Shown: positions 5,338 to 25,863, counted from the stretch's first letter. The stretch: 64,000 bases of DNA from an uncultured Chloroflexia bacterium (GCA_963738475.1 CAVTWU010000008.1:8605-72604); one strand, 5' to 3'. Translations and numbers: made by a program. Notes: generated by a model from the letters alone, not told the origin.

Positions 5338-6170
5338 TCATGCGGTCGGCGTCACCTCCTGTCGCGTGTCCGCTCCGCCACGACCGCTCCCACGATCGAT
5401 GACGTGCGCGAGACGGCGCGAGTGCTCACGATAGGCTGCGTCGAACAGATCCCGCGAGCGCTCGGCGCCTACGACCGATGCCCGGGTGATGACAGGTGGC
5501 ATGATGCCGCGCTCCGTGAGGAGTTCGGCGGTTCGCACCTTGATGGAATTGACGATGGCGACGGCGGTGACCGTCGAGCCCGGTCCGACCGGGGTGTCGA
5601 GCCCGTCGACGGCGATGAGCGCGTCGGCGTGGGGCGTGCACAGGTCGATGACCAGGTCCGCCTCATCGAGCAGGCGGCTGCCGACGCGCGGATCGATGTC
5701 GCTGGACATCGACTGGGCGACGGACGTGACGGCGATGACGCGCAGGCCCGCGAGCGCGGCCGCCGCGGGCCATCTCGACCGGCACGGCCGTCGTGCCGCC
5801 GGCGGAGAAGACGATGAGCACGTCCTTCGGCCCGAAGGCGAAGTTGTCGAGGATGACCTCGGCGAGGCCGGGCATCCGCTCGATGAACATCGCCTGGCGC
5901 TGGCCGTTGGCGCCGACGACCTGGGTGTGGAACGTCATCGACAGCTCGGCGATCGGGTTGAACCCGGGATACGAGCCGTAGCGCGGGAACATCTCCTCGA
6001 CCGGCATGCGCGAGTGCCCGGTCCCGAAGAGGTGGACCAGGCCGTCGGCGGCGATCGCCTCGGCACACCAGCTGCTGGCCGGTCTCGATGGCGTCGGCCT
6101 GGGTCTCGGACAGCACGCCGAGCAGCCGGATGGCCTCGTCGACGAAGGGGAGAGACCGATGCGCGCTCAT
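5338..6170 (-). CDS. SIS-domain phosphosugar-binding protein (UPF0309-like), frame broken
   Basis: MSAHRSLPFVDEAIRLLGVLSETQADAIE (ATG 6170), AIAADGLVHLFGTGHSRMPVEEMFPRYGSYPGF (own translation plus ORF 5663..6007), and C-terminus = ORF 5338..5709 (LVIDLCTPHADALIAVDGLDTPVGPGSTVTAVAIVNSI..IMPPVITRASV). Confidence 0.7.
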
Positions 6171-7229
6171 GTCAGGCGGCTCCTGCCGGTGCGGGCTGCG
6201 ACCGGCTCCCAGGCGCCCGGTCCGCATGGAGCGGTAGGCCGCGTCGATGATCGCGTTCACGGCGAAGCCGTCGCGGAACGTCTCGCGCGGCGTGACGCCG
6301 TCGCGGAACGTGTCCACGAGGTGGCGCATCATCGCGTCGTGGCCGTGGGCGTAGGGCTCGTCCGGGACCGGGAAGACCCAGCCCGTGTCGGCGTCCATCT
6401 TCTCGCCGAGATAGCCGGCCGGTCGCTCGATGAACGCGCGCAGCGTCGTGGACGTGATGTCCTCGACGATCCGCCCGGCATCGCCGTAGGCCTCGAAGCG
6501 GTTCTCGAGGCCGCCCTTCGACGACCACGAGACGTCCATGGTGGCGACCCGGTCGTCCTCGAAGCGCACGAGCATGACCGCGTTGTCCTCGAGGGTCGTC
6601 TTGTCGGTGTGGACGAGGGTCGCGCCCCAGGCGAACACGTCGCGCACGGGGACGTCCTTGCCGAAGAGGTAGCGGGCGGCTTCGGCGCCGTGCGAGCCCA
6701 TGTCCAGCAGCGCGCCGCCACCGGCCAGCTCGGCATCCCAGAAGTGCGGGGCGTGCGGGCCGCTGTGGCCCTCGCGCGCCCGGAACGTCGTCAGCCGCCC
6801 GATCGCGCCGGCCTCGATCATCTCGTGCATCCGGACCGTCTCGACGGTGAAGACGACGTTCTCCATGTACAGGTTGTAGACGCCGGCCGCCTCGACCAGG
6901 CGGACCATCTCGGCCGCCTCGACCGCGTTGCGCCCGAGCGGCTTGGTGCAGGCGACGCCCTTGCCGTGCCTGGCCGCCAGCCGGACCGCCTCGACGTGGA
7001 GGTGGTTCGGCAGCGACACGACGACGAGATCGACCTCCGGATCGGCGCAGACGGCCTCCATCGAGTCCAGCGCACGGCTGCCGAACCGAGCGGCGAACGC
7101 CTCGCGGCGCTCCGACCCGGCGCCCCAGTTGGCGGCGACGTGGACGCCCGGCACGTAGCGCAGGCCGAGCGTGTGGAACTCGCCGATGAACCCGGACCCC
7201 AGGAGCCCGATGCCGATCTCGCGTGCCAT
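6167..7229 (-). CDS. Gfo/Idh/MocA family NAD(P)-dependent oxidoreductase
   Basis: Inside ORF 5469..7277 from M17: MAREIGIGLLGSGFIGEFHTLGL..VVVSLPNHLHVEAV..ACTKPLG. One indel near 6215; with it the protein ends ..GAWEPVAARTGRSRLT, with its TGA overlapping the SIS-gene ATG (ATGA). Confidence 0.85.
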
Positions 7230-7273
7230 CAGTAGCCGCCCTCGCTCGCGCCGGCCGCGGCGCTGACGGGCGC

Positions 7274-7978
7274 TCACGCCCGCGGCACTTGCGCGCCCGG
7301 AAGTCGTCGATGATCGACGGCCGTCGCGGTCGCGCCGACGCGCGTCACGCCGAGGGCCATGACCTCCAGGAGCGCATCCAGGGTCCGCACGCCGCCGGCG
7401 GCCTTGACCTGGACGTGGGGCGAGGTGTTGGCCCGCATCAGGCGCAGGTCGTCGTGGGTCGCGCCGGTCGGGGCGAACCCGGTCGACGTCTTGACGAACT
7501 CGGCGCCGGCGGCCTCGGTCAGATGGCAGGCCCGGATCTTCTCGTCGTCGGTGAGGTAGGCGTTCTCGAAGATGACCTTGACGATGGCGCCGCCCGCGTG
7601 GGCGACCTCGACGACGGCGCGGATGTCGGCTTCGACGTCGGCGTCGCGACCGGCCTTCAGGGCGCCGATCTGGATGACCATGTCGAGTTCGGTCGCGCCG
7701 TCGGCCAGCGCTCGCTCGGCTTCGAACACCTTGGTCGCGGTCAGGTGGTTGCCGTGCGGAAAGCCGATGGTCGTTCCGACCGCGACGTCCGTGCCGTCCA
7801 GGATGGCCCGGGCGCGAAGGACGTCCGCCGGGCGGACGCAGACGGACGCCACGTCGTACCGGGCCGCCAGCCGGCAGCCGTCCTCGACGAACGCGTCGTC
7901 CAGCTCGGGCCGAAGGAGCGAATGGTCGATCGTCTTGGCGATGTCACGTTCGGTCAGTCCATCGATGCTCAGGGTCAT
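7274..7978 (-). CDS. deoC: deoxyribose-phosphate aldolase
   Basis: Inside ORF 7274..8407 from ATG 7978: MTLSIDGLTERDIAKTIDHSLLRPE..ASVCVRP..TTIGFPHG..ELDMVIQIGALKAG..VKVIFE..FVKTSTGF..VKAAGGVRT. The lysine-containing DeoC motifs are intact and the frame is uninterrupted. Confidence 0.85.
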   Translation of the reverse strand: MTLSIDGLTERDIAKTIDHSLLRPELDDAFVEDGCRLAARYDVASVCVRPADVLRARAILDGTDVAVGTTIGFPHGNHLTATKVFEAERALADGATELDMVIQIGALKAGRDADVEADIRAVVEVAHAGGAIVKVIFENAYLTDDEKIRACHLTEAAGAEFVKTSTGFAPTGATHDDLRLMRANTSPHVQVKAAGGVRTLDALLEVMALGVTRVGATATAVDHRRLPGAQVPRA

Positions 7979-7983
7979 CACGC

Positions 7984-8900
7984 TCACTTGATGTAGGGAC
8001 GCAGGACGTCGCGGGCCAGCAGGAACCCGCGCTTGATGAGGTCGTCGGTCTTCTCGAAGTCGCGATCCTCGTGCTCGATGATCACGTCGCCATCGAAGCC
8101 TTCGCGCCACAGGGCGGCGAACAGCGGCGCCCACTCGACCTCGCCGAGGCCGGGCAGGCGGGGGATCTGCCAGCCGATGCCCTGGCTGAAGATGCCGCGC
8201 TCGTACAGGCCCTCGCGGTCGATCATCAGGTCCTTGGCCTGGACGTGGAGGATGTGCGGCCCGAACTCGCGGATGAAGCGCGGGATCTCGATCATCTGCA
8301 GGATCAGGTGGGACGGGTCGAAGTTGAGCCCGACCGTGCCGCCCCACTGCTCCAGGATCCGGCGCCACATCCGCGGCGACGTCGCCAGGTTGTGGCCGCC
8401 CGGCCACTCGTCGTAGCTGAACAGCATCGGGCAGTTCTCGAACGTGAGCTTCCGGCCGTGGTCGGCCGCGAACGACACGATGTCCGGCCAGACCCGCAGC
8501 GCGTCGTCCCAGTTCTGGTCCGGCGTCTTGGCGCCGTCGGCGCCCATGAACGTGTTGACGAGGCCGACGTCCATCTTCTCGGCCGCGGTGATGACGTGCT
8601 TGAGGTGGCCGATGACCTCGTCGCGGTGGGCCGGATCCGGGTGGAGCGGGTTCGGGTAGTAGCCCAGGCCGGAGATGTGGAGGCCCTTGGCCTCGATCGA
8701 CTCGCGCAGCTCCGTGGCCTCGACCGGCCGACAGGTTCGCGACGTCGATGTGGGACGTGCCGGCGTAGCGGCGGGTCGGGCCGGACGCGCGCGGCCAGCA
8801 GGCGATCTCGATGCTCTCGAAGCCGTTCGGCGGCGGTCCAGTCGACGACGTCCGCCAGCGGCGTCTCGGGGAACGGCGCGGTCAGCAAGCCAAGCTTCAT
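7984..8900 (-). CDS. sugar phosphate isomerase/epimerase (xylose-isomerase-like TIM barrel), frame broken near the N-terminus
   Basis: ORF 7984..8574 (..[55 protein letters not shown]..). N-terminus [25 protein letters not shown] from ATG 8900 is in another frame. 917 nt is not a multiple of 3. Confidence 0.8.
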
Positions 8901-10096
8901 CGGGCGGCCTCCGTCAGTGCGGGGTGCTGGATGGGGGCGGGCCGGTCGACGGTGACCCAGCGCCCTTCTCGGGCGCTGCGGGCGATGGCGTCCCCGACGA
9001 GCATCTCGTCGTGGCCGTCGGCGAACGTAGGATAGCCGGGGCGGGAGGAGACCGCCCCGGCTACCACGTCCGCATAGACGGCCCGGAAATGGGCGCAGAA
9101 GGTGTCGAAGAAGCCCTCGACGTGGCCGCCGGGCAGCGCGGACGCCGCCTGGCCGGCCGGACCCATCAGGGCCGGGTTCCGGATGAGGATCTCGTTGGGT
9201 CGATCGCGGTGGCCGATCCAGGCCTGGTCGGGCTGCTCGGAGTCCCAGGCGAGCGGCCGCCTCGGACCCGTCGATCTCGTACTGGAGCGAGTTCTTCCGG
9301 CCCGGGCTGATCTGGGAGATGCTCACCGCGCCGCGGGCGCCGCCCTCGAAGCGGAGCAGGATCGCCGCGGTGTCCTCGGTCGCGATCGTCGCGCGCGACC
9401 GTGTCGCTCGACCGTTCCGTGGCGAACGACTCGACCGGCCCGGACGGCTCGTGGCGCGTCTCGATGAACGTCGTCAGGTCGGCCATGACCTCCACGATCC
9501 GCTGGCCGGTGACGAAGGTCATGAGGTCCATCCAGTGCGACCCGATGTCGCCGACCGCGCGCAGCGCGCCGCCGCGATCCGGCTGGAGGCGCCAGTTCCA
9601 GTCGCTGTCGTGGAGCAGCCAGTCCTGGAAGTAGCGGCCGGTCACCAGCCGGACGTCGCCCAGCGTCCCGGCGGCGATCGTCTCGCGGGCCTGCTGGTTG
9701 AGCGGGTAGTAGCGGATGTTGAAGTTGGTGGCGTTGACCAGGCCGCTCGCGGCGGCCAGCTCGACCAGCTCGGCGGAGCTCGTCGGCCGTCATCGCCAGC
9801 GGCTTCTCGCAGACGACGTGGCGGCCGGCGGCCAGGATGGCCTTCGTCTGGGAGACGTGCAGGTCGTTGGGCGAGGTGACGTGGACGACGTCGACGGTCG
9901 GATCGGCCAGGAGGTCGTCGAGGGAGGCGTAGGCGCGCGGGACACCGAGGGCGTCGGCCCGGGCGGCGCCGCGCTCCGGCGTGCTGCCGAGGACGCCGCG
10001 GACCTGGACGCCGATCCGCCGCAGCGCTTCCACGTGGACCGTGCCGATGAAGCCCGTCCCGATGACGGCCGCGCCGACGTCGGCGATCCTCCTCAT
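8897..10096 (-). CDS. Gfo/Idh/MocA family oxidoreductase, several compensating frame breaks
   Basis: ORF 9323..10126 from M11: [48 protein letters not shown]. Middle = ORF 9166..9645 ([38 protein letters not shown]). C-terminus = ORF 8897..9166. ATGA overlap with the next gene at 8897-8900. Confidence 0.85.
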
Positions 10097-10129
10097 CCCG
10101 TGCTCACCACCCGTGTGTCGTGCCAAGCT

Positions 10130-10145
10130 GTCTAGACGGTCTAGA
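10130..10145. promoter_or_regulatory. candidate operator: direct repeat GTCTAGA-cg-GTCTAGA in the divergent spacer between the catabolic operon and the ROK regulator
   Basis: Read directly. Each unit contains the palindrome TCTAGA. It lies in a visibly less GC-rich ~190-bp spacer (10097-10287). No binding data are available. Confidence 0.3.
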
Positions 10146-10287
10146 TGGTTGCGCGATGGTACGGGCCGGACTCACGTGGGTCAACACCCGATCACGCATC
10201 GATACTTTATCTGCTCTCCATCGTACTTTCTCCTGTCAAGTGCAAAAGTGCTGGTCGGCGGCGCCGAGCTGGGCGTATCATCGGCCG

Positions 10288-11581
10288 GTGAGCCAGCAAC
10301 CCGAGCCCGGCCGCGCCGGCCGGTATGCCCCGATGCCGGACGAGGCGCTCGACGCCCTCGTGACCGTGCTCGACGAGATCCGCCTGGGCCGGTCGAGCTC
10401 GCGCTCGGAGCTGGTCGCGCGGACCGGGCCTCAGCCGGGCGATCGTGGCCCAGCGGGTCGGCGAGCTGATCGAGCGCGGCCTCGTCACCGAGGGCGATGT
10501 CGGGCCGAGCACCGGCGGTCGACCGCCACGCCAGCTCACCTTCCGGTCGGACGGCGGCTACGTCCTGGTCGCGGACCTCGGCGCGACCAGCATCGACGTG
10601 GCGGTGACGACGCTGGACGGCCGGATCCTGGGCCACCACGACGAGCCGGCCCGGATCGAGGCCGGCCCGGAGCGCTGCCTGGACCGGGTCGATGCGCTGG
10701 TCGGCCTCGCTGCTGCGGACGACGGAAGGCCTGCCCGGCCGGCTGTGGGGGATCGGCATCGGCGTCCCGGGTCCGGTGGAGTTCGAGGCCGGCCGGCCGA
10801 TCTCGCCGCCGATCATGCCCGGCTGGGACGGCTACCCGATCCGCGAGCGGTTCGCCGCGCGCTACGGCGCCCCGGTCTGGGTGGACAACGACGTCAACGT
10901 GCTGGCGCTCGGGGAGTGGCGGTCGGGCGTCGCGGCCGGCCACGACAACGTCGTCGTCGTGAAGATCGGCACCGGCGTCGGGGCCGGGATCATCTCCGAC
11001 GGTCATCTCCATCGGGCGCCAGGGCAGTGCCGGCGACGTCGGCCACATCCAGGTCACGGACGATCCGGCCGTCGTCTGCCGCTGCGGCAACATCGGCTGC
11101 CTGGAGGCGCTCGCCGGCGGCGCGGCGCTGGCCCGGGCGGGCGAGGCGGCCGCCCGGGACGGCCGCAGCCAGCGGCTGCTGGCCGCACTGGATCAGCGCG
11201 GATCGGTGACCGCGGAGGACGTCGCCCGCGCGGCGTCGTTCGGCGATCCGGTGGCGATGGCCCTGCTGCAGGACGCCGGTCGGCGCGTCGGCTCGATGCT
11301 CGCGAGCGTCGTGAACTTCTTCAACCCGTCGCTGATCGTCATCGGCGGCGGCGTCGCCAACAGCCCGGACCAGTTCCTGGCGTCGATCCGCGAGACGGTC
11401 TACCGACGCTCGCTGCCGCTGGCGACGCGCGACCTGCTCGTCCAGCGCTCGTCGCTCGGCGGCCTCGCCGGCGTCATCGGGGCGTCGTCGATGGTCGTCG
11501 ACCAGCTCTTCTCGCGCGAGTCGATCGGCCGCTGGATCGACCTCGGCGACCCGTCCGGCGTCGAGGTCGCTCTCCGCGTAG
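10288..11581 (+). CDS. ROK-family transcriptional regulator (wHTH + ROK domain), several frame breaks; 3' end uncertain
   Basis: w[28 protein letters not shown] (ORFs 10120.. and 10445..), then [51 protein letters not shown] (ORF 10692..), the Zn motif [23 protein letters not shown], and [17 protein letters not shown] (ORF 11206..). Confidence 0.8.
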
Positions 11582-11604
11582 GCCGGACGCCGGGCGCGGC
11601 GCGC

Positions 11605-12810
11605 TCAGCCGCCGGCGACGACCCGATCCGTGAAGTCGCCGGACGCCGGGTCCTTGAGGATGAGCTTGTGGCGCCCGTCCGGCAGGATCTCGCGCTTGAT
11701 GACGACCTGGCCCTCGTAGGTCTCGGGCGTCGAGGCGATCCGCGGCGTCGAACCGCCGCGCCAGTCGAGCTCGACCGGCGCCCAGGCGTTGGCCTTCGCG
11801 GACCGATAGCAGGCGTCCATGATCGCGTTCACGACGTAGCCGTCGTAGAACGTCTCCTGCGGCGCGCGCGCCCGCGTCGATCGCCCGGAACATGTCGCTG
11901 AACATGTCCACGTAGCCGAGCTCGGACACCTCGTCGCCGACCGGGAACAGCCAGCCCGCGCTCGATCTCGGCCTTCTCGGCGACGTAGCCGCCGCCGGCC
12001 CCGGGCGCGCTGAACATCTCGAACCCGGTGCGCAGGAAGTGGTTCATCCAGATCGTGCCGTGGGTGCCGGCGACCTCGTCGCGCAGGTCCATCCCGCCAC
12101 GGAACGTCCAGCTGACCTCGAACTGGCCGATGGCCCCCGACTCGAACCTGATGAGCGCGACCGCGTTGTCCTCGTCGGCGATCGGGTGGACCAGCGTGTC
12201 GGTGTGGCACAGGACCTCGACCGGCCGGTTGCCCTTGCCGACGAAGTTGCGGACGATCTCGATGCAGTGGCAGCCGAGGTCGATGATCGCGCCGCCGCCG
12301 GTCAGCCGGCCGTCCCAGAACCACGCGGAGTGCGGTCCGGGATGGGTCTCGCGCGAGCGGACCCAGGTCACGTCGCCGATGGCGCCCGCCCGCACCGACG
12401 CGATCGCCTTGAGCGTCTTGGGCGTGTAGCACAGGTCCTCGAGGTAGCCGCCGAAGACGCCGGCCGACTCGACCATGTCGAGCATCCGCTTGGCCTCGGC
12501 CGCCGTCCGCCCGAGCGGCTTCGTGCACAGCACGGCCTTGCCGGCCGCCGCGGCCAGCCCGACCGCCTCCTCGTGGAGGAAGTTGGGCAGCGCCACGACG
12601 ACGACGTCCGTGTCGGGGTGCTCGACGGCCGCCTTCAGGTCCGTCGTGGACTCGGGGATGCGACCAGCGCTCGCGGAACGCCGCGCCGCGGCCCTCGCTT
12701 CGCGAGTAGACGACGCTGACCTGGTCGCGTCCGCGCTGGCCGTGGAGCGTGTTCGTGTAGAAGTCGCTGATGAGTCCGGTGCCGAGCATCGAGATCCGGT
12801 GGCCGTCCAT
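11605..12810 (-). CDS. Gfo/Idh/MocA family oxidoreductase, frame broken
   Basis: ORF 11605..12810 start [22 protein letters not shown]. Core in ORF 11829..12902 ([37 protein letters not shown]). C-terminus ..[46 protein letters not shown] lies before ATG 12810. Confidence 0.85.
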
Positions 12811-12822
12811 GGGTGCCTCCTC

Positions 12823-13869
12823 CTACGCGGTGCACGGGGTGGTGACCGAGGACCAGGTCGCGCCCGGCGACCATGGCCGCGAGCTTGGCGCGCGTCGCCC
12901 ATCGGGCGGTCTGGCTGAACCCGCAGTCCGGGACCAGCGTCAGCCGCTCCGGCGGCACGCCGACGGCCAGGATCGCCTCGGTCCGCTCGGCGACCTCGTC
13001 GGGTGACTCCAGGTGGTAGTTCTTGACGTCGATGACGCCGGCGGCGACGTCACGCCCGGCGGCGGCGATCTCGCCCAGGATGGCGACCTCGGCCATCTCC
13101 CGGTTCGCGAACTCGAGGACGAGCTCGTCGACATCGAACCGGAGCATCGCGTCCAGGACCGGGCGGTACGTCCGCCGGGCCAGCGGCCGGCCGAGGTAGT
13201 TCCCGAAGCACAGGTGCGCCCCGAGCCGGACCTTGCCGACGACCGGCGCGACCGCGGCGTTGAACAGCGCCGAGAAGTCGGACGGGGCCTCCGGGTGGAT
13301 CGCCGGCGACGGGTCGTCGATCTGGATGAACGTCGCGCCCTCGGCCGCGAGCCCCTCGATCTCGGCCCGCAGGATCGGCACGAACGCCTCGGCGGCGTCG
13401 TTGCGGTGCGGGTAGACCTGGCCCGGCCCGTAGGTCAGGCGCCCGGACAGGGTGTACGGGCCCGGGGATGGTCACCTTGAGCGGCCGGGTCGTGCGGGTC
13501 CGCGCGTAGCGGTACTCGGCGACGACGCCCAGGCCGTCGGGCGCGGCGATCGGCTCGAGGACCTCGAAGCGGTGCTGCTGGTCGTGGCCGCCGGCCCCCA
13601 GCCGCCGATCCGGCGGGGAGCGCCCGGACGCCGGTCAGGTGCCGGTAGAACTCCGCGGTGAAGAACCCGGCCCGGCGCATCTCGCCGTCGCACACGATGT
13701 CGATGCCGGCGGCCTCCTGGTCGCGGATCGCGAGGTCCACCGCGTCGTCGAGCATCTCGTCGAGGTCGGCCGGACCGAAGTCGCCGCGCTGCGCCGCCTC
13801 GATGCCGGACACGAACCACGACGGGCGCGCGTGCGAGCCCACGACGCTGGTCAGGAGTCGGTCGGTCAC
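12823..13869 (-). CDS. cobalamin-independent methionine synthase family (MetE C-terminal-like / Meth_synt_2) protein, frame broken
   Basis: ORF 13435..13869 [29 protein letters not shown]; ORF 12635..13381 ([57 protein letters not shown]). Stop inferred at TAG 12825-12823 after an indel. Confidence 0.7.
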
Positions 13870-14837
13870 GCGTCACCCTCCGCGATCGTCGGGGCGAAGG
13901 CGAACGCCCGCGCCGGAGCCTCCACGAACCATCGATGCCGGACGGTCTCGTCCAGCCCGCGCTCGGCCATGAGCGCGGTGAACCCGTCGAGCAGCCAGGT
14001 CAGGCCCGGCGCCCCATCGTAGACGTGGTAGTAGCCCCGTCGCGCGGCGTCCATCCCGAGGAGGATCTGGCCGTCCAGCCCGTCCTCGACGGCCCATTCG
14101 AGCAGCTGCAGCGTGCCGTTCGCCTCCTTCCAGCGGAACGACTGGTCGTACTCGCCGAACGCGCCACTCCCCAGGAGCTCGCGGTGGTACTCGCGATCCA
14201 CCACCTTGTCGACATGGCTGAACGCGATGTGCGCGGGCGGCACGCCCAGGTCGGTCAGCAGGCGGAGCTGGTCCAGGGCGCCGGTGCCGGCCTCGCAGTG
14301 GGTCAGGATCGGCACCCCGGTCGCGAGGTGGGCGAGCGCGGCCGCCTCGAACACCCGCCGGTCCCGGTCGGATGGGCCGTCCGTGCTGCCGGCGATCTTG
14401 ATCACCCCGGCCCGATGGTTCGTCCGCTCGACGACCGGCCCGCTGTAGTCGTACAGGTCGATGCCGTCGGTGACATCGAGGACGAACAGCGTCGCGATCT
14501 CCTCGACCCGGAGCCGCGCGCTCCAGTGCGCCGGACCGTAGTAGCGATCGTGGTGCAGGCCGGTCGGGGCGATGACGTGGATCCCCGCCCGGCGCGAGAG
14601 GTCGGCCAGCTTGAGGGCACTCCGGCCGGCATCGCACGGCATCGCATCCACCACGGCACGCAACCCGAGCGCGGTCGCCTCGCCGACCTCGCGGACCATC
14701 GCGTCCACGTCGCCGAGGTCGAAGTCCGGCTCCATGAGGACCGGCCGGCCACCGTCGATGACGACGTGCTCGTGCGCGTACGTGACGCCGAGGTCGGCGG
14801 GCGCGATGTCGCCGAGGACGGTCCGGACGAACGTCAT
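13866..14837 (-). CDS. phosphotriesterase-homology protein (PHP; amidohydrolase superfamily), intact
   Basis: Inside ORF 13866..14996 from M54: MTFVRTVLGDIAPADLGVTYAHEHVVIDGG..APTGLHHDRYYG..AGVIKIAGS..PILTHCEAGTG..FSHVDK..LLGMDAARRGYY. Metal-ligand pattern HxH..H..H..D is present. ATGA overlaps at both ends. Confidence 0.85.
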   Translation of the reverse strand: MTFVRTVLGDIAPADLGVTYAHEHVVIDGGRPVLMEPDFDLGDVDAMVREVGEATALGLRAVVDAMPCDAGRSALKLADLSRRAGIHVIAPTGLHHDRYYGPAHWSARLRVEEIATLFVLDVTDGIDLYDYSGPVVERTNHRAGVIKIAGSTDGPSDRDRRVFEAAALAHLATGVPILTHCEAGTGALDQLRLLTDLGVPPAHIAFSHVDKVVDREYHRELLGSGAFGEYDQSFRWKEANGTLQLLEWAVEDGLDGQILLGMDAARRGYYHVYDGAPGLTWLLDGFTALMAERGLDETVRHRWFVEAPARAFAFAPTIAEGDA

Positions 14838-16189
14838 CGGCAGCGGCCTCCTTGATGTGTCGCCAGGCGCAGGATCGCGCCATCCGCCTCGAGGCGGGCT
14901 CGGAGCACGGCGTGGTCCACGTCGCGCGGATCGTGACCGCGGCTCGTGACCGCGAGCGCGGCGGCCGTCCCGGCGGCCTGGCCCATCGCCATGCACTGGG
15001 CCATGGACCGGACCGAGGCATGCGCGTCGTGCGTCGCCGAGAAGCAGCGCCCGGCGACCAGCACGTTGGCGGCGTCGCGGACGACCAGCGCTCGATAGGG
15101 GATGCCGACCGCCGCGCCGTCCGGCAGGTACTGCCCAGGTCGTGTCCGTCGCCGCCGTGGTGGTCCTCGATCGGGGCGCCGCACAGGCCGATGGCGTCGT
15201 CGAAGTCCCGGGCCGACAGGACGTCGTCGCGGGTCAGCCGGTAGTCGCCGTACACGCGCCGCGTCTCGCGGACCCCGATGCCCGTCCCGAGTCCGACGAG
15301 CGACGCGCGCTTCGTAGCCGGGCACGCGGTCGACCAGGAACCGGGCGTACTCGAGGGCCTGGCGCCGGCCGGCGATCTCGGCATCGGTCAGGAACCACGG
15401 GTCGGTCGGGTTGACGATGCGGCCGTCGTCGGTCGCGGCGGGTCGAGGGCAGGCGGGTCATGACCGTGGCGGTCACCCCATCGATCGGCGTGATGTGATC
15501 GCTGCCCTCCCGGCGGGGCAGGTCGTACCCGCCGGCCTCGGCGGCCTCCGCCATGAGCCGGTGGAGCTCGGCGGTGTCGATCGTCCGCCGCCGCTCGAGG
15601 TCCACGTTGGCCATCCGGAACGTCGTGGTCAGCGTCTGGGCCGGATCCAGCTCGCCGGCCGTCTCGTACCCGAACCCGGCGAACGCGCACAGGTCCGCGT
15701 CACCGGACGCATCGATGAAGGTCGTCGCGCGCACGCGCGCGAGGCCGGCCCGGGTCGCCACGACCAGCGGCGTCCGCCCGGCCGTCCCGGACCTCGACGT
15801 CCTGGACCGTGGCGTGCAGCAGGATCCGGACCCCGGCGTCGCGTCGCGAGGCGCTCCCAGACGACCTTGAGGTGATCCGCCAGGTAGGTGACCCCCGTCC
15901 CGGCGCCGTACGAGTTCGGTCGCTCGACGACCGGCCCGAGGGCCCGCAGCCCGGCCACGACGTCGTCGGCGATGCCGCCGACCACCTTGCGCGGCTCGGC
16001 GCCCGGCGTGTAGAAGCCGTAGAACGTGTCGAGGACCGCGGTGCTCGTCCCGCCCAGGAACGGCAGCCGATCGATGAGCAGGACCGAGGCGCCGGCCCGG
16101 GCGGCGGCGATGGCCGCGGTCGAGCCCGCGGACCCGGCCCCGACGACGCAGACATCGACCTCGGCGATCGTCGGCCAGCGGTCGCTCAC
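14834..16189 (-). CDS. FAD-dependent oxidoreductase (GxGxxG N-terminus), many frame breaks
   Basis: GTG 16189: VSDRWPTIAEVDVCVVGAGSAGSTAAIAAARAGASVLLIDRLPFLGGTST (ORF 15629..16606). Further pieces: FIDASGDADLCAFAGFGYE (ORF 15234..), GIGVRETRRVYGDYRLT (ORF 13873..), VLVAGRCFSATHDAHASVRSMAQCMAMGQAAG (ORF 14834..15325). Confidence 0.75.
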
Positions 16190-17016
16190 GGTCGGTCCGC
16201 CGTCGTCGAGATGACCGACCAGCCACCATCGACCGCGAGCGACTGGCCCGTGACGACACGCGACTCGTCGGACAGGAAGTAGATGGCGGCCTGGGCGACC
16301 TCGTCGGGATCCATCATCTCGCCGGCCAGCGGCTGCTTGCGGGCGGCGTAGGCCCGGATGTGCGGATCGGCGGCGGCGCGGCCGGCCATCGGCGTCGCGG
16401 TGAGCGACGGCGCGACGAGGTTGACCCGGATGCCCTCGGTCGCATAGGTCGCGGCCATGGTCGTCATCAGCGCCGTCAGCGCCCCCTTCGCGGCGGCATA
16501 TCCGTGGGTCGCGAACAGCTCCGGCACCGGGGCCTTGCGTCGTGACGCTGCCCAGCAGCAGGATGGATCCGCGCGTGCCGGAGTCGTTGGGCGGCTGGGC
16601 CCGCATCGCCCGGACGACGCTGGCGCAGGCGAGGATCTGGGTCCGCAGGTTGAGCGCCGCGCGTGGCCTCCCAGGCGTCGCCGGTCACGGTATGGATCGG
16701 TCCGTCGCCGAACCGTCGCCCGCTCCCGCCCGCCACGGAGAAGAAGCCATCGATCCGACCGTAGCGCGCCACGGCCGCCGCGACGGCGGCCTCGGTCTGG
16801 GCCTCGTCGGTCAGGTCGGCGGCCGCCCAGCCGGCGTCGACCGCCGTCGGCGACGAGCCGCTCCGCGAGCCCGCGAGCGTGGGCCTCGGTCCGCGAGACG
16901 ATGAAGACCGGCGCGCCCTCGGCCGCGCACCGGACGGCGGTCGCCTCGGCGATCCCGGTCGAGCCGGTGATGAGGCAGACCCGGTCGCGCAGCCGCCCGT
17001 GGGAGCGCGCGGTCAT
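16186..17016 (-). CDS. SDR-family oxidoreductase, frame broken in the middle
   Basis: ORF 16186..18159 contains MTARSHGRLRDRVCLITGSTGIAEAT.. and the C-terminus ..YAAAKGALTALMTTMAATYATEGIRVNLVAPS..VVTGQSLAVDGGWS (YxxxK). The middle is readable in ORFs 16476..16772 and 15629..16606. GTGA and ATGA overlaps with neighbours. Confidence 0.8.
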   Translation of the reverse strand: MTARSHGRLRDRVCLITGSTGIAEATAVRCAAEGAPVFIVSRTEAHARGLAERLVADGGRRRLGGRRPDRRGPDRGRRRGGRGALRSDRWLLLRGGRERATVRRRTDPYRDRRRLGGHARRSTCGPRSSPAPASSGRCGPSRPTTPARADPSCCWAASRRKAPVPELFATHGYAAAKGALTALMTTMAATYATEGIRVNLVAPSLTATPMAGRAAADPHIRAYAARKQPLAGEMMDPDEVAQAAIYFLSDESRVVTGQSLAVDGGWSVISTTADRP

Positions 17017-17975
17017 GGTCGGTCCAGGACGGCCCGGGCCGTCGCGGCGTCCGTGACGAGCATCCGGACGACGCCGGTCGCGAGGGCGCCGCGGATGGCC
17101 GCGGCCTTCTGCGTGCCGTACGCCACCGCGACGACCCGTGGGACGGCCCGGAGCGCGTCGACGCCGATGGCGATCGCCCGGGCCGCCAGATCCGGGGCGA
17201 CGAACGCGCCGGTCGCATCGAACGGGTGGACGACCAGGTCCCCGATCGCGCCTGCCGCGGCGAGCCGCTCGGACATCGGCGTCATCGAGGACGCCGGACC
17301 CGAGCAGCGACGACGCGGCCTCGCTGCCCGTCGACCGGCATCGCGCCGATCCCGACGATGGCGAGGTCCACCGAGCCGAAGCGGGCCACGGTCTCGGCGA
17401 CCTCCGGCTCCCGCAGCAGGGCGCTCCGCAGCGTCGCGTTCTCGACGAAGGCCGGGGCATAGATCGCCCGATGCGTCCCGCCCAGCCGTTCGGCCAGCCC
17501 GCGGGCCAGCTCCCCGGCGTCGAGACCGCGCCCCAGGCGCACGGAGCTGCCGGCGAGCTGGACCACCTCGACCGACGATCCGGGCGGCTCGGGATCTCGC
17601 GCACGACCGCGGCCAGCGTGGACCCCCAGGCGACCCCGACCACGTCGGTCGGCCCGATGAGCCCGTCGATGACCGGACCGGCCAGGCGGGCCACGCCGTC
17701 CGACGTGGCCGCCACGGCGCCGAGGCTCAGCCCGAAGCGCTCCTCGAGCGCCGTGGCGAGCGTGCGGTCCTCGGCGGGACGTCGCGGTACTCGATCCGGA
17801 CGAGACCGCTGGCAAGTGCGCCATCGAGCAGCCGCGCGACGCGGAACCGCGAGATGCCGAGGTGTGCGGCGATCTCCACCTTGGTCATCCCGCGATCGAA
17901 GACAGGCGGGCGACCTGGCGTTGCGAGGGAGGTCGCGGCTGCGGCTGTCGGCGGCTGGCCGACCTCGAGGGTCAT
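17013..17975 (-). CDS. SorC/DeoR-type sugar-binding transcriptional regulator, frame broken
   Basis: ORF 17727..17975 (MTKVEIAAHLGISRFRVARLLDGALASGLVRIEY). Sugar-binding domain pieces are in ORF 17282..17824 (..VVQLAGS..YAPAFVENATLRSALLREPEV..) and ORF 17013..17285 (..VVHPFDATGAFV..VAVAYGTQKAAAIRGALATGVV..LVTD). Confidence 0.75.
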
Positions 17976-18298
17976 CGCGACCGATGGTAGTCCTCGCCCA
18001 TCTGAGATACAAGTCGCTCATGTGAGCATCTCGCCCGGTGGGCCCGGGCACCGCCGTCCGGCACGCACCTGAGCGTGGGACATTGACGTCGACGCCATCC
18101 GCGGGTCTATGATTCACGCATCCCGAACGGCACCCACGCAGCGGCAGTCCGCGCGCCATGCCCGTCCGGTCCCCGCCTAACCGGTCCCCGCGACCGGCCC
18201 TTTCCCCTCAGGTGACCCTACCCAGATGCCCGGATCAGGCCCCGACCAGCGCAACCAGAGCTCCCGCAACCGACGACCTCGCCGCCGCGCCCCGATGA

Positions 18299-19721
18299 AT
18301 GCCCGCGTGCGCGCCCGTCAGCGAGTTCGAGGAACAGCAGGAACTCGAAGCCGCCCGCGAGCGGAACGACCTCGAGGTCGGCGACCTCCGCGAGATGAGC
18401 GTCGCCGAGCTGCGCCAGGTCTCGCGCGACCTCGAGGTCGACGCCGACGACCGGCGAGCGCAAGGACGACCTGGTCGACCGGATCCTCCAGGCCCAGACC
18501 GAGCGCGCCGGCCACGACTACGCCAGCGGCATCCTCGACATCGTCGACGAGGGCTTCGGCTTCATGCGCCGCCACGGCCTGCTGCCCAGCCCGGACGACG
18601 TCTACGTCAGCTCCAGCCAGGTCCGCCGCTTCGGCCTGCGCATCGGCGACCGCGTCGCCGGCGCCGTCCGCGCCCCGCGCGAGGCCGAGAAGTACTGGGG
18701 CATGCTCCGGGTCGACTCGGTCAACGGCGTCGACACCGAGACGGCCCGCCGCCGCCCGGTCTTCGGCGACCTGACCCCGGTCCACCCGGACGTCCTGATC
18801 AACCTCGAGACGGACCCCAAGAACCTGAGCCAGCGGCTGATCAACCTGGTCAACCCGATCGGCAAGGGCCAGCGCGCCCTCATCGTCAGCCCGCCGAAGG
18901 CCGGCAAGACGATGCTCCTCAAGCAGATCGCCAACGGCATCAGCGCCAACTACCCGGAGATCCTCCTGATGGTCGCCCTCATCGGCGAGCGACCCGAGGA
19001 AGTCACGGACATGCGCCGCAGCGTCAAGGGCGAGGTCATCAGCTCCACCTTCGACGAGCCGACCGAGAACCACACCCACGTCGCCGAGATGGCGCTCGAG
19101 ATCGCCAAGCGCCAGGTCGAGACCGGCCGCGACGTCGTCATCCTGCTCGACTCGATCACCCGCCTCGCGCGCGCCTACAACCTGGCCCTGCCGCCGTCCG
19201 GCCGGACGCTGTCGGGCGGCCTCGATCCCGATCGCCCTCTACCCGCCCAAGCGCTTCTTCGGCGCCGCGCGGAACATCGAGGAGGGCGGCTCGCTGACGA
19301 TCATCGGCACCTGCCTGGTCGACACCGGCTCGCGCATGGACGACGTCATCTACGAGGAGTTCAAGGGCACCGGCAACTCGGAGCTCATCCTCGACCGCAA
19401 GCTCGCCGAGAAGCGCATCTTCCCGTCGATCGACGTCCAGCGCTCCGGCACCCGCCGCGAGGAGCTGCTCCTCGAGGAGGGCACCCTCAAGATGGTCTGG
19501 ACGATGCGCCGGATGCTGTCCGCGGTCGGGGCCAACGAGGGCATCGAGATCCTGCTCAACCGCCTGGCCAAGACCCAGACCAACGCCGAATTCCTGGCGA
19601 CGCTGACCAAGAGCCTCGACAGCCTGACCGTTGCCGGGGAGCACCCGGAACGCGTCCCGCGGGCTGCGAGGCGTTTGCCACGTCCTTCGAGCCCATGGTA
19701 CGGTTCGCCGCGATGTCGTAA
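18299..19721 (+). CDS. rho: transcription termination factor Rho, frameshifted (~18460, ~19230); 3' end uncertain (19627 or 19721)
   Basis: ORF 18564..19721: ..[85 protein letters not shown] 19336..19860: ..[44 protein letters not shown]. Confidence 0.9.
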
Positions 19722-19738
19722 GCCCGTCGTCAACGGGC
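19722..19738 (+). terminator. small hairpin gcccgt-cgtca-acgggc directly after a TAA stop
   Basis: Read directly. 6-bp stem followed by gttcgg (weak T content). Confidence 0.25.
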
Positions 19739-19957
19739 GTTCGGCCGCGAAGAAGAGAACCCCAGCTCGAATCCGCGACCCTCGGACGGTCCGCCGATCC
19801 CCAGTCCCCGCGCCCCCACGCGCCCGCGACCGTCCACACGCCAGGAGACCGTATTGCTGAACGCACCGGTCGGCGTCCAGCGCGTCATCGGACGCCTGCG
19901 TCGACCTAGCAGCGAAGGCCCGACACCGCGCGACCCTCCCGACCCGCAGCCTTCGCC

Positions 19958-21241
19958 ATGGCTGCGCCAGGTCCGGACCCGGCTGCGTGCAGTCGCCGGC
20001 ATCGCGCACCTGCCTGCCGGCACGCGCCCGGCCGTCGGACCGCCGCCTGCGGCCCGACCGCTTCGTCGAAGCCTGATCGGCCGGCTCGGCCAGGACCGCG
20101 TCCTCGCGGTCGTCGGTCGCCGGCATCGTCCTCGTCGCCTCCGTCGCGAGCGTCTCCGCCAGCGGCCGTCGGGACCGGTCGGCGGCCCGGACGGCGACGG
20201 CGCCGGCACCCGCGGCGTCGTCGGTCGGCGGCGACACCGGCGACCGACGGCACGACACGGCCGAGGGCGGCGACCGTCGACGGCGCCGTACCCGCAGCGA
20301 CCCGGCCGATCGTCGCCGAGCTCGGCCGCCGCCGAGGCGCTGCGTCCAGGACGAGACCGCCGTCGAGGGCCCGTTCCTCGAGGACGGCACGCTGCTCAAG
20401 CCGGTCGCGGTCAACACGACCGTCGAGGACGGCAGCGGACCTGCTGCGGACCTACAAGGTCAAGGCCGGCGACACGCTGACCGGCATCGCCAGCAAGTTC
20501 GACGTCTCGATGATGACCATCTGGTGGGCGAACCAGCTCAAGTCCAAGGACGACCTCCACATCGGCCAGGTCCTGACGATCCCGCCGGTCACCGGCCTCG
20601 TCGTCACGGTCAAGGCGACCGACACGCTCGACTCGATCGCGGACCGCTACAAGCGTCGACGCGGCCGACATCCTCGACCGACGAACGGCCTCGACGACCC
20701 GAACCTCGTCATCGGCCAGGTCGCTCGTCGTCCCGGGCGCCGCGGGCAAGGCCATCCCGACGCCGAAGCCGCCCAAGGTCGTCAAGACCGACCACCACGC
20801 CGCGCTCGCCACCAGCGGCGGCGGCGGCGGCGGCACGTCAGCCCGCCGCGCCACTACAACGGCGGGCGATTCGGCTGGCCGGTCGTCGGCGGCGGCAACT
20901 ACATCAGCCAGTACTTCCACTACGGCCACTACGGCGCTCGACATCGCCGCCGACTACGGCTCGCCGCGTGCGCGCGGCGGCCGGCGGGACGGTGATCTTC
21001 GCCGGCTGGAAGAGCAACGGCGGCGGCTACCAGGTCTGGATCGCCCACGGCTCCGGGCTGTACACGACGTACAACCACATGTCGGCGGTCACGGTCGGGC
21101 GCGGCCAGCCGTCGGCCGCGGCCAGCAGGTCGGCCGGGTCGGCCAGTCCGGCAACGCGACCGGCCCGCACCTCCACTTCGAGGTCTGGAGGGGCCCCGTC
21201 TGGGACGGCGGCACCGCGTCAACCCGCTCGGCTACCTGTAG
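19958..21241 (+). CDS. LysM-domain M23 family peptidoglycan endopeptidase, frame broken; start uncertain
   Basis: ORF 19958..20995: two LysM-like repeats (YKVKAGDTLTGIASKFDVSMMTIWWANQL.., VTVKATDTLDSIADRY). M23 core: ORF 20524..21258 (GTVIFAGWKSNGGGYQVWIAHGSGLYTTYNHMS) and own translation SGNATGPHLHFEVWRGPVWDGG..NPLGYL, stop TAG 21239-21241. Confidence 0.8.
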
Positions 21242-21312
21242 GACGTCGCCGCGCCTGATCCCGGTCCGCCGTCGCGGCGGTCGCCGCGGTCGGCTGTGCG
21301 AGAATCGCCCTG

Positions 21313-22622
21313 ATGTTCCTCGACCGCGTGAAGATCTGGGTCCGTGCCGGCGACGGCGGCGACGGGGCCGCGACCTTCCGCCGGGAGGCCCACGTCCCGC
21401 GCGGCGGCCCGGACGGCGGCGACGGCGGGCGCGGCGGCTCGGTCTACCTGCGGGTCGATGCCGGCCAGACGACGCTCCGCGACTTCCGGTTCAAGCACCA
21501 CTTCAAGGCGACGCCCGGCGGCCGCGGCGAGCGGCTCGCGCCGCCACGGCAAGGCCGGCGACGGACCTGGTCCTCGACGGTCCCGCCCGGGACGGCCGTC
21601 TACGACGACGAGACCGGCGAGCTGATCGCCGACCTCGTCGCGGTCGGCCAGGAGGCGATGGTCGCGCGCGGCGGCCGCGGCGGCCTCGGCAACACCCACT
21701 TCGCGACGTCCACCCACCAGGCCCCCAAGCACGCCCAGAAGGGCGAGCCCGGCGAGGAGCGCTGGCTCCGCCTCGAGCTGCGGCTCATCGCCGACATCGG
21801 CCTCGTCGGGCTGCCGAACGCCGGCAAGTCGACGCTCCTCGCGGCCCTGACCGCGGCCACGCCGAAGATCGCCGACTACCCGTTCACGACGCTCGAGCCG
21901 AACCTCGGCGTCATGGACCTCGGCGACGAGGACGAGCGCCGGCCGACGATCGCCGACGTGCCCGGGCTCATCGAGGGCGCCAGCGACGGGGCCGGCCTCG
22001 GCCACGCCTTCCTGCGCCACGTCGAGCGGACGCGGATCCTCGTCCACGTCGTCGACGGCTCCGGCGCGCGATCCCGGAGTGGGACTACGACGTCATCCGC
22101 GAGGAGCTCGCGGCGCACGACCCGGCGCTGCTCGAGAAGCCGATGCTCGTCGCGTTCAACAAGATGGACCTGCCGGCGGCCGCGCGAGGCGTGGCCGGCG
22201 TTCCGGCGCGCCCGCGCGGCGGACGGCCTGGCCGTGCGTGGCGATCTCGGCGGACGACCGGCGAGGGGCTCGACGCGCTCCGCGCCGCGCCTCGCCGAGC
22301 TGCTGCCCGACGCGGCCGAGCTGGCCGAGCCGCCGGAGCCGGCCGGCGTCGTCGTCCACCGCATCGAGGCGATGGGCGACGGCTTCCGCGTCGAGCGCGA
22401 GGAGGACGGCGTCTTCCGGGTCCGCGGCAAGCGCATCGAGCGGATCGCCGCCCAGACCAACTTCGACGTCGAGGAGTCGGCCGAGCGCTTCCAGCGCGAC
22501 CTCGCCCGGCTCGGGCATCGACGCGGAGCTGCGCCGGGCCGGGATCGCAGGCCGGCGACATGGTCCGCATCGGCGCGCGTCGAGCTGGAGTGGGAGCCGC
22601 GAGCCCTGGGAGGACGCGGTGA
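21313..22622 (+). CDS. obgE: GTPase Obg/CgtA, several frame breaks
   Basis: ORF 21313..: [88 protein letters not shown]-terminal OCT-type segment [22 protein letters not shown]..; ORF 22143..22622 ends the gene. Confidence 0.9.
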
Positions 22623-23293
22623 CGACCGCGGCGGCGTCGGCCGCGCCGGTCGCCGGGCGCGCTCGGCATCCTCGGCGGGACGTTCGATCCCGATCCACAT
22701 CGCGCCACCTCGCGATCGCCGAGGAGGCCCGCGAGGCGCTCGGCCTCGAGCGGGTCCTGTTCATCCCGGCCGGCCAGCCGCCGCACAAGCCGGACCGGCC
22801 GATCACGCCCGGCGAGCACCGGCTCGCGATGGTCGAGCTGGCGATCGCCGGCAACCCGGCCTTCGCGCGTCAGCCGGATCGAGCTCGACCGCGACGGGCC
22901 GTCGTACACCGTCGACACGCTCGACGCGCTCCGCGAGGCGCGCTGGCCGCCGGCGAGCCCCGGACCTCGTGCTCATCCTCTCGGCCGAGGCGCTCGCCGG
23001 GCTCGCCGACGTGGCGCGAGCCGCGAGCGGATCCTGGAGCTGGCCGCGCTCGCGGTCGTGCCGCGCGACGGCTTCCCGGACGCGACGCCGCGAGCGCTGG
23101 TCGCCGCGCACTTCCCGGGCCGCGAGGACCGGGTCGTCGCTCCTCGACGGCCCGCGGCTGCGGCTCTCGGCCTCGCGACCTGCGCGCGCGGGTCGCCGCC
23201 GGCCGCTCGATGCGCTACCTCGTGCCCGGATGCGGTCGCGGCCTATATCGAGCGACCATGCACTCTACCGAGACCCGCAGGAGGACCCCCTGA
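22619..23293 (+). CDS. nadD: nicotinate-nucleotide adenylyltransferase, frame broken
   Basis: GTG 22619 overlaps the obg stop (GTGA). Own translation plus ORF 22079..23293: [72 protein letters not shown]. The c5 run at 23286-23290 sits just before a possible TGA. Confidence 0.85.
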
Positions 23294-23295
23294 CC

Positions 23296-23743
23296 GTGAC
23301 CGGACGCCACGCCGCCCCGTCCGAGACCGACCGAGCCGCCAGCGCGCCGACGGCCTGCCCAAGCGCGCGCGACGCCGGCGCCGAGCAAGCAGGAGCGCGA
23401 TCCGCTCGACCTCGCCCGGCGGATCGTCGAGCTGGCCGAGGACAAGAAGGCCGCCGACATCGTGCTGCTCGACCTGACGCGCGCTGACGACGCTGGCCGA
23501 CTACTTCGTCATCTGCTCGGGCGGCTCGGAGCGCCAGCTCGACGCCATCGCCGACGGGATCGTCGAGCGCGCTGCGCGACGAGAAGACGAAGCCCGATCG
23601 GCCGCGAGGGGACGCCCGCTCGCACTGGGTGCTGCTCGACTTCGGGTCGGTCGATCGTCCACATCTTCACGCCGCCCGAGCGCGACTACTACGGGCTCGA
23701 GAAGCACTGGTCCGAGGCGAAGACGGTCCTGCGCGTCCAGTAG
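23296..23743 (+). CDS. rsfS: ribosome silencing factor RsfS (iojap-like), frame broken; start uncertain
   Basis: Own translation ..[49 protein letters not shown]..; ORF 23462..23743 ends ..[30 protein letters not shown]. Confidence 0.85.
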
Positions 23744-23864
23744 CGCGGCGCCGCGGCCGGCCGCGGGTCCGGCCGAGCGGTGCGACTGGTGGGTCCTGGC
23801 GGGTGGCGGGTACCGTCGGGTCATGCCGAGCGCGCGGAGGTGCCGACTCCTAGCATCGCGCCGC

Positions 23865-24118
23865 ATGTCGCGCCTGCGCGATCGCTGCCCCGCCTGTGGC
23901 GCCGGCTCATCATCACCCGCTTCGACACGACGTTCCGGCTGCCCGACCGCAGCGAGCGGCTGTGCTTCGGCATCCCCGGCGGCCTGTGCGAGGACTGCTC
24001 CCAGCTGTACATCGACCCGGAGCTGATCGAGCTGCTCGACCTGGGCGAGGGCCGCTGCGTCTTCGCGATCGAGAGCGACCTCGTCGTCCAGGAGCAGGCC
24101 TGGTCCTCCGCCGACTAG
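23865..24118 (+). CDS. small hypothetical protein with CxxC...CxxC (zinc-ribbon-like), one frame change near 23905
   Basis: ATG 23865 MSRLRDRCPACGAG.. (ORF 23823..), continuing as ..IITRFDTTFRLPDRSERLCFGIPGGLCEDCSQLYIDPELIELLDLGEGRCVFAIESDLVVQEQAWSSAD (ORF 23780..24118). No family recognised. Confidence 0.4.
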
Positions 24119-25850: not shown

Positions 25851-25863
25851 GCGCCGGGGACCG

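Follow-up and report, generated by a model that had tools for sequence, protein, structure and literature searches.

The 64,000-nucleotide stretch analysed here, which we call the window (G000:C8:8605-72604; G+C content about 72%), belongs to a metagenome-assembled genome (MAG), G000, of 3.7 Mb in 30 contigs with a completeness score of 60%. Within it lie six minus-strand genes encoding a SorC-type regulator, an SDR, a flavoprotein, a PTE-family hydrolase (Php), a MetE-like protein and a Gfo/Idh/MocA dehydrogenase. We found that these genes are a functional, conserved operon, and that the pathway they encode is real and uncharacterised. The best 80 Php-encoding loci in a collection of species-representative genomes were all from Chloroflexota MAGs labelled Candidatus Limnocylindria or Limnocylindrales or given older lineage names, many of them long-read soil MAGs; the source organism is a Candidatus Limnocylindria (Chloroflexota) from soil.

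Gene content and operon structure

Pfam searches of the open reading frame pieces of the window matched, in order, Sugar-bind, adh_short_C2, FAD_oxidored (PF12831), PTE (PF02126), Meth_synt_2 (PF01717) and GFO_IDH_MocA. These are the families and the minus-strand order (SorC, SDR, FAD oxidoreductase, PHP, Meth_synt_2-like, Gfo/Idh/MocA) that a first-pass annotation, made from the sequence alone, had read. Intact orthologues from a relative, G010 (locus L013, 95% complete), matched the same families over their full length and served as tblastn queries, which aligned to five of the genes in several pieces lying in different frames:

17013 to 18000 (start at about 18000-18035), minus strand: SorC/DeoR-type regulator with a helix-turn-helix and PF04198 (Pfam, tblastn), 4 frame pieces
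16186 to 17016, minus strand: SDR (adh_short_C2, tblastn), start ATG at 17016 and stop within GTGA, 4 frame pieces
14834 to 16189, minus strand: FAD-dependent oxidoreductase, PF12831 on three fragments, 3 frame pieces
13866 to 14837, minus strand: Php, a PTE-family (COG1735) binuclear-metal amidohydrolase of 323 amino acids (PF02126), uninterrupted
12823 to 13869, minus strand: single-domain MetE-like (Meth_synt_2) zinc enzyme of about 347 amino acids (PF01717, tblastn), 3 frame pieces
11605 to 12810, minus strand: Gfo/Idh/MocA NAD(P)-dependent sugar dehydrogenase of about 400 amino acids (PF01408, PF22725, PF02894), 4 frame pieces

The tblastn alignments spanned 17990-17025 for SorC, 16995-16195 for the SDR, 13869-12830 for the MetE-like gene and 12810-11626 for Gfo. 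Because homology to SorC reaches 17990, the regulator does not start at 17975, as had been annotated, and its start lies upstream, roughly at 18000-18035; the exact position is uncertain owing to indels there.

Four of the five junctions had been described as 4-nt overlaps, and all four could be read directly in the sequence: each combines the stop codon of one gene with the start codon of the next, as ATGA at 17016-17013 (SorC to SDR), GTGA at 16189-16186 (SDR to flavoprotein), ATGA at 14837-14834 (flavoprotein to Php, with AAGGAGG ahead of it) and GTGA at 13869-13866 (Php to MetE-like). At the fifth junction, a 12-nt spacer with GGAGGAGG runs from the in-frame MetE-like stop TAG (12825-12823), hidden by a 1-nt insertion at 12827 in our indel map, to the Gfo ATG at 12810; here the stop codon and the Shine-Dalgarno context could likewise be read in the sequence. 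The overlaps were kept in the intact orthologous loci L023 (a short-read contig of a near relative, with a Php 93% identical to that of the window), L013 and L103-L105, which supports the single translationally coupled operon proposed earlier. A simple pattern scan, which is weak evidence, detected no internal promoter-like or terminator-like site within the six genes; its lone terminator-like match, at 18028-18015, falls in the uncertain start and leader region of SorC.

A conserved but modular gene set

We compared gene content across four sets of loci: the best 80 Php loci, 62 species-level loci scored for the flavoprotein and the MetE-like gene, 54 loci that were fully flanked and 47 loci scored for the neighbouring cluster. 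The full six-gene order was found in 8 of the 54 fully flanked species-level loci. Intact six-gene sets occurred in the same-genus genomes G010 and G006, and three loci of another genus, SPCO01 (L103-L105), had the identical order and overlaps within unrelated flanks. The set therefore behaves as the unit that it had been taken for, and it is modular rather than fixed. Three further architectures were seen among the fully flanked loci: SDR, Php, MetE-like and Gfo (18 loci); SDR, flavoprotein, Php and Gfo with an optional SorC (15 loci); and ROK, Php and MetE-like with an optional flavoprotein (11 loci).

Php was constant in all 62 scored loci, and its partners varied in a complementary way. 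The MetE-like gene alone accompanied it in 23 loci, the flavoprotein gene alone in 22 and both in 17, and no locus had neither. Under independence about 8 loci with neither gene would be expected (Fisher's exact test, P = 1.6e-6, not corrected for phylogeny). On the Php tree the pattern needs at least 17 state changes and thus does not stem from one or two ancient events. When the flavoprotein or MetE-like gene was absent from the cluster, it was absent from the whole genome. In a same-genus locus of G002 (L026/L003; G002:C345:1868-2272), all that is left of the MetE-like gene between Php and Gfo encodes residues 1-93 and 303-345, the remnant of an internal deletion that stands midway between the two cluster types.

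Individual loci showed other features. Downstream of the SPCO01 operons, a PPDK_N/PEP-utiliser gene, a three-subunit molybdoenzyme of the xanthine dehydrogenase family and a transaldolase replace the ROK/Gfo2/TIM/DeoC cluster that adjoins the operon in the window. A locus of the ROK, flavoprotein, Php, MetE-like type (L041:11311-16936) is followed by, among others, genes for a GH3 glycosidase and for an ABC importer's sugar-binding protein, a hint that the substrate derives from a glycoside. The same-genus genome G021 has two Php copies on different contigs (C9:13854-14801 and C7:87814-88761, 72% and 71% identical to the query), reflecting either a real duplication of the cluster or a mixed bin. 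A contig labelled Verrucomicrobiia (L101, DATNBW010000285.1) carries rho, SDR, Php, MetE-like and Gfo genes; its Php nests within the Limnocylindria clade of the Php tree, and the contig is probably mis-binned rather than a case of lateral transfer.

Php is related to phospho-sugar lactonases

Php matched PF02126 with 136.3 bits (cut-off 22.4) across profile positions 2-297 of 298. Its closest matches in a sequence search of the PDB were 3msr/3ovg (5e-43) and 3pnz (4e-39), that is, the COG1735 phospho-sugar lactonases MS53_0025 of Mycoplasma synoviae and Lmo2620, respectively; PLL lactonases, E. coli Php and phosphotriesterases scored well behind. Php shares the PTE-family fold and length of these two enzymes, and its metal-site residues (HxH, Lys, His, His, Asp) align with theirs: H22, H24, K147, H180, H208 and D263 were invariant in 12 orthologues and are the same in 3msr and 3pnz, completing a binuclear metal site with the HxH motif, a bridging Lys/Glu, two His and an Asp. 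R235, K237, R266 and Y269/Y270 were also invariant, and align with basic and aromatic residues of Lmo2620 that presumably bind phosphate. Php is therefore, as far as its sequence goes, a candidate (phospho)sugar lactonase. An exact-sequence look-up of Php returned no record.

Php also differs from Lmo2620 and MS53_0025 in its genomic partners, which here are a flavoprotein, a MetE-like enzyme, a Gfo and an SDR. E. coli Php (1bf6) is also a PTE homologue with an open physiological role and lies within a catabolic-looking operon, but it is a much weaker match (5e-24). The E. coli yhf cluster is not known to contain any of the partner families seen here.

The MetE-like protein recurs in sugar gene sets

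The intact orthologue of the MetE-like protein matched PF01717 with 94 bits, and its best solved match was the MesD structure 3RPD (2e-26, 96 bits). Four predicted zinc ligands (H218, C220, E252 and C315), which align to 3RPD, were invariant in nine sequences extending down to 40% identity. Also invariant in these nine sequences were S12, E63 and D184, which make up a homocysteine-binding site; the equivalent Ser, Glu and Asp of E. coli MetE are S433, E484 and D599 (PMC7857596). By these alignments, the predicted catalytic residues of both Php and the MetE-like protein are retained.

The MetE-like gene is a genuine, recurring part of the sugar set. In Chloroflexota family f16, genes for a MetE-like protein (66% identity), a PTE (45%) and a KDPG aldolase lie in a row, convergent with Gfo, M24, SDR and Gfo genes. 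A complete genome of Chloroflexota family f52 lacks a PTE gene and has an operon of a ROK kinase, Gfo, SIS (PRK02947 type), SDR and MetE-like gene. In Verrucomicrobia, a 44%-identical MetE-like gene lies between an SIS_2 gene and a gene for a metallo-beta-lactamase-fold hydrolase, with a dienelactone hydrolase gene adjoining. A further relative lies between an HpcH-type aldolase and RhaM. More distant relatives (40-46% identity) in a Rokubacteria-labelled locus (L119, 40%) and an unassigned contig (L120, 44%) stood in unrelated contexts, which limits the association with sugar genes to the closer subfamily and one Verrucomicrobia group. The subfamily is small, as only 158 clusters at 50% identity matched at E <= 1e-30 among 1.8 billion representatives.

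The family genomes hold one to four distinct genes for PF02574 homocysteine S-methyltransferases; in G000 they lie on contigs C24, C29, C15 and C10. Among them are the long MetH and shorter proteins (open frames of about 340-750 amino acids), which suggests a rich repertoire of methyl donors.

Regulator, dehydrogenases and flavoprotein

The intact orthologue of the regulator matched PF04198 with 174 bits and had a match of the helix-turn-helix type at residues 28-62, which places it in the SorC family; it fell below the cut-offs for DeoR (145 versus 420 bits) and LsrR (83 versus 486 bits). It is probably a repressor, for which a phosphorylated intermediate would be the effector. The cluster had been described as SorC-regulated: a SorC gene does head the operon here, but the regulation can only be presumed, and SorC was detected in just 12 of the 54 fully flanked loci. 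Each of these 12 also has the flavoprotein, and none belongs to the 18 loci of the SDR-Php-MetE-like-Gfo type. A k-mer search of the regions upstream of sorC gave no convincing shared palindrome that could be an operator. It returned two shared motifs, one of which is KDPG aldolase coding sequence and the other a conserved leader without a clear palindrome.

The SDR translation contains TGSTGIA and YAAAK motifs. Gfo matched PF01408, PF22725 and PF02894 and so has both domains of its family, the N-terminal Rossmann and the C-terminal alpha/beta domain; its best NCBIfam match was IolG, at 116.7 bits versus a cut-off of 355, and its relationship to levoglucosan dehydrogenase, inositol dehydrogenases and C-glycoside 3-dehydrogenases is no more than distant. 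The intact orthologue of the flavoprotein matched PF12831 with 351 bits. A sequence search of the PDB found no characterised close relative and matched the dinucleotide-binding motif only, and a Foldseek search of the PDB with its AlphaFold model (pLDDT 73) recovered only the generic two-domain fold, with TM-scores below 0.52. The structural matches were geranylgeranyl reductase-like proteins, aromatic hydroxylases and halogenases, and we drew no functional inference from them. All six proteins of the operon scored far below every NCBIfam curated cut-off, in line with the earlier view that none has a close characterised orthologue.

A neighbouring sugar cluster and aldolase genes

On its downstream side the operon meets a ROK gene and, beyond it, a second cluster, mapped by tblastn:

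10297 to 11571, plus strand: ROK-family regulator (G010 orthologue as query), 4 frame pieces, convergent with the operon and divergent from the neighbouring cluster
5398 to 10096, minus strand: neighbouring sugar cluster (start)
10096 to 8930, minus strand: Gfo2
8900 to 7987, minus strand: TIM-barrel AP_endonuc_2-like gene
7978 to 7232, minus strand: DeoC (G010 orthologue matches deoC with 214 bits, NCBIfam cut-off 117)
7229 to 6213, minus strand: Gfo3
6079 to 5398, minus strand: SIS protein, PRK02947 type (G010 orthologue 266 bits, NCBIfam cut-off 135)

Gfo2 and the TIM-barrel gene were found at most 8 kb from the operon in 36 of the 47 loci, and the f52 operon mixes genes of both clusters; both observations strengthen the link between the two clusters that had been suspected from their adjacency. 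A gene for a KDPG/KHG-type aldolase directly preceded the operon in 17 of the 80 loci.

A proposed oxidative sugar pathway

We consider it somewhat probable that the operon encodes an oxidative branch of the catabolism of a sugar or sugar phosphate, as yet uncharacterised, that proceeds via a lactone. A pathway of this kind had been suggested in the first-pass annotation, and it gains from the proximity of Php to 3msr/3ovg and 3pnz and from the aldolase genes that precede related operons. We infer the order of steps, the lactone chemistry, the phosphorylation of the substrate and the effector of SorC as follows. Gfo/Idh/MocA or the SDR would oxidise a sugar to a lactone in an NAD(P)-dependent reaction, and Php would open the lactone to a sugar acid. 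The second dehydrogenase, with the PF12831 flavoprotein, the MetE-like zinc enzyme or both, would carry out a further modifying step. An aldolase would then take the product, either the KDPG-type enzyme whose gene leads the operon in many relatives or, here, DeoC of the adjoining cluster. SorC would act as a repressor, with a phosphorylated intermediate as its effector.

Dehydrogenases, a lactonase-type hydrolase and an aldolase (in the 17 loci and in f16) are common to this scheme and to the Entner-Doudoroff and other oxidative sugar routes. The operon differs from these routes in that it has no recognisable sugar-acid dehydratase, its lactonase is of the PTE type and it has an extra flavoprotein and/or MetE-like step. 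In the literature we found nothing relevant on PF12831, UPF0309, Lmo2620 or combinations of MetE-like, lactonase and MocA proteins, and no description of such a cluster.

Several observations weigh against this proposal. No canonical sugar-acid dehydratase was found in or beside the operon or in any context examined, which leaves a plain scheme of the Entner-Doudoroff kind incomplete; genes for all four of its enzymes (dehydrogenase, lactonase, dehydratase and aldolase) did not occur together, and the aldolase is found only in relatives or as the adjoining DeoC. The six-gene unit contains no kinase, and phosphorylation of the lactone is thus suggested only by the relatives of Php and the neighbouring ROK and SIS genes. 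Php scored 173.7 bits on the phospho-furanose lactonase equivalog NF045706 (cut-off 630), which makes it a relative of these lactonases and not an orthologue. The complete homocysteine site of the MetE-like protein has no obvious role in simple sugar oxidation. Finally, peptidase-like genes (M24, S51) accompany distant relatives, a hint that the substrate is a sugar-amino-acid conjugate and not a plain sugar.

One possible explanation for the complementary distribution of the flavoprotein and the MetE-like protein is that they are interchangeable versions of one step, the removal of a heteroatom-linked substituent from a sugar or sugar acid. That every locus keeps at least one of the pair, together with the completeness of the homocysteine site, points to alternative versions of one step, although we hold this idea only tentatively and think it more doubtful than the oxidative pathway as a whole. 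If it holds, the flavoprotein would remove the substituent oxidatively, and the MetE-like enzyme would act without oxygen, using a methylated sugar or sugar acid as the methyl donor to turn homocysteine into methionine. Alternatively, the MetE-like enzyme may release homocysteine from an S-linked sugar.

Instead of a plain sugar, the operon might act on a sugar-amino-acid conjugate or on a lactone or thiolactone of non-sugar type; examples are S-ribosylhomocysteine from outside the cell, homocysteine thiolactone and an Amadori or opine-like compound. The pocket of the MetE-like protein still has its residues for binding an alpha-amino acid, its gene is accompanied by SIS genes of a single subfamily (PRK02947), and the M24 and S51 genes adjoining relatives fit as well. 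LuxS was absent from all 13 genomes tested, so these have no known use of S-ribosylhomocysteine. All the same, we regard a substrate of this kind as unlikely. Php occurs without a MetE-like gene in 22 of the 62 loci and is nearest to phospho-sugar lactonases, not to the PLL group that acts on acyl-homoserine lactones and thiolactones, and partners of the sugar type (Gfo, ROK, DeoC, KDPG aldolase, GH3 and sugar-binding proteins) dominate every context. S-adenosylhomocysteine hydrolase was present in all 13 genomes tested, and S-ribosylhomocysteine is thus not made internally and is an unlikely endogenous substrate; we rejected disposal of endogenous S-ribosylhomocysteine as a role for the operon.

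Slightly less probable still is that the MetE-like gene encodes a cobalamin-independent methionine synthase of the 'core' type, which uses a conventional donor and happens to reside in the operon, outside the sugar pathway. The protein's invariant zinc ligands and homocysteine-binding residues (roles from PMC7857596) would suit such an enzyme, as would its best NCBIfam matches, which are methionine synthase models. It is also better conserved than Php between the same genomes (82-93% versus 70-77% identity), and in two genomes that carry its gene, G001 and G006, the MetH activation domain (PF02965) was not found. However, its orthologues occur solely within this cluster; about half of the same-genus genomes lack them, as does the sister family with small genomes. 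A PF02574 MetH-type gene was present in 61 of 61 family genomes sampled (MetH is present in G000), and the MetE-like gene is complementary to the flavoprotein gene across loci. Its adjacency to sugar enzymes persists despite changed order and partners in f16, f52 and Verrucomicrobia. It scored below every curated methionine synthase cut-off, reaching 185.6 bits on the best model, NF003317 (cut-off 406), and as a 347-amino-acid single barrel it is not MetE proper (TIGR01371, 48 bits versus 930), which has two domains, about 750 amino acids and an N-terminal folate-binding Meth_synt_1 half. MesX (PF08908) gave no match in 11 carrier genomes, although the control genomes gave no match either. A housekeeping methionine synthase, which we rejected on the cluster-bound distribution, the absence from half of the genus and the ubiquity of MetH-type genes, is probably not what this gene encodes.

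Like the core methionine synthases MesA-MesD (PMC7857596), the MetE-like protein is a single Meth_synt_2 barrel of about 340 amino acids without the folate-binding half, and it shares the HCEC zinc site and the Ser/Glu/Asp homocysteine site of MesD; unlike them, it is not the sole methionine synthase of its genome and is embedded in sugar operons, and its 96 bits to 3RPD compare with a threshold of 560 bits for MesD (PMC7857596). The MetE family has members outside methionine synthesis as well.
Epoxyalkane:coenzyme M transferase is a zinc-dependent thiol alkyltransferase of this kind, which alkylates a thiol with a catabolic intermediate. Compared with it by description only, the MetE-like protein differs in keeping the amino-acid-binding residues, which points to homocysteine and not coenzyme M.

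Frameshifts in the window are sequence errors

At least 13 frame switches fall within the 6.4 kb of the operon, and the resulting pieces are 60-90% identical to the intact orthologues and contain no in-frame stops. We used the adjacent rho gene as a control:

18226 to 19623, plus strand: rho (tblastn with G010 Rho), 4 frame pieces of 80-92% identity each

The ROK gene was broken at the same density as rho and the operon genes, and Gfo2, the TIM-barrel gene and the SIS gene of the adjoining cluster were likewise split, at a rate of about 2 frame switches per kb. As the essential rho gene is broken alike, the frameshifts are not specific to the operon. Php had been singled out as one of the few uninterrupted genes and is indeed the sole single-frame gene of the six; at this rate an unbroken gene of 0.97 kb is unremarkable.

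Positions 9000-20000 of the window aligned to L023 in a single 11-kb blastn high-scoring segment pair with 89.6% identity. Relative to L023, single bases are inserted at 45 places in the window and missing at 11, a 4:1 bias towards insertions; most of these indels are an extra base in a CG/GC context, not in a long homopolymer. All six genes are intact in L023, with the same overlaps, and all short-read relatives are intact at the operon. A second contig of the same MAG (C4:1-12000) is collinear with window positions 14901-26951 at 89.7% nucleotide identity. Its SorC, SDR and rho genes are intact, and its flavoprotein gene is in a single frame, truncated because the contig starts inside it. 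This second copy means that the G000 bin contains either two related populations or two assemblies of close relatives, one clean and one error-rich. The completeness score of 60% for a MAG of only 30 contigs is a further sign of sequence errors.

The interruptions are therefore single-base assembly or basecalling errors and not decay, a point that the first-pass annotation did not make. The breaks that five of the six genes show in the deposited sequence might suggest real frameshifts in a decaying pseudogene array, but this is highly improbable given the equal rate in rho and the neighbours, the high identity of pieces free of stop codons, the nearly exclusive single-base changes with their excess of insertions, and the intact copies on C4 and in all short-read relatives. 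The window is itself a poor-quality copy of the operon, and its frameshifts should not be read as biology; intact copies are available in relatives.

Implications for Limnocylindria and the enzyme families

Limnocylindria are abundant, uncultured Chloroflexota of soil and fresh water, and their carbon sources are largely unknown. The operon is conserved, accessory and unlike any described pathway, and it thus marks a substrate that these bacteria use but that cannot yet be named. It also provides a physiological context for three poorly understood groups: Php-like COG1735 hydrolases, PF12831 flavoproteins and stand-alone MetE-like barrels outside methionine synthesis. The pattern in which the flavoprotein, the MetE-like protein or both are present, and never neither, makes it a testable proposition that the two proteins serve one function. 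If they do so by removing a substituent from a sugar or sugar acid, this would reveal a new class of donor or substrate in the MetE family and would tie carbohydrate catabolism directly to the supply of methionine or homocysteine in abundant soil Chloroflexota.

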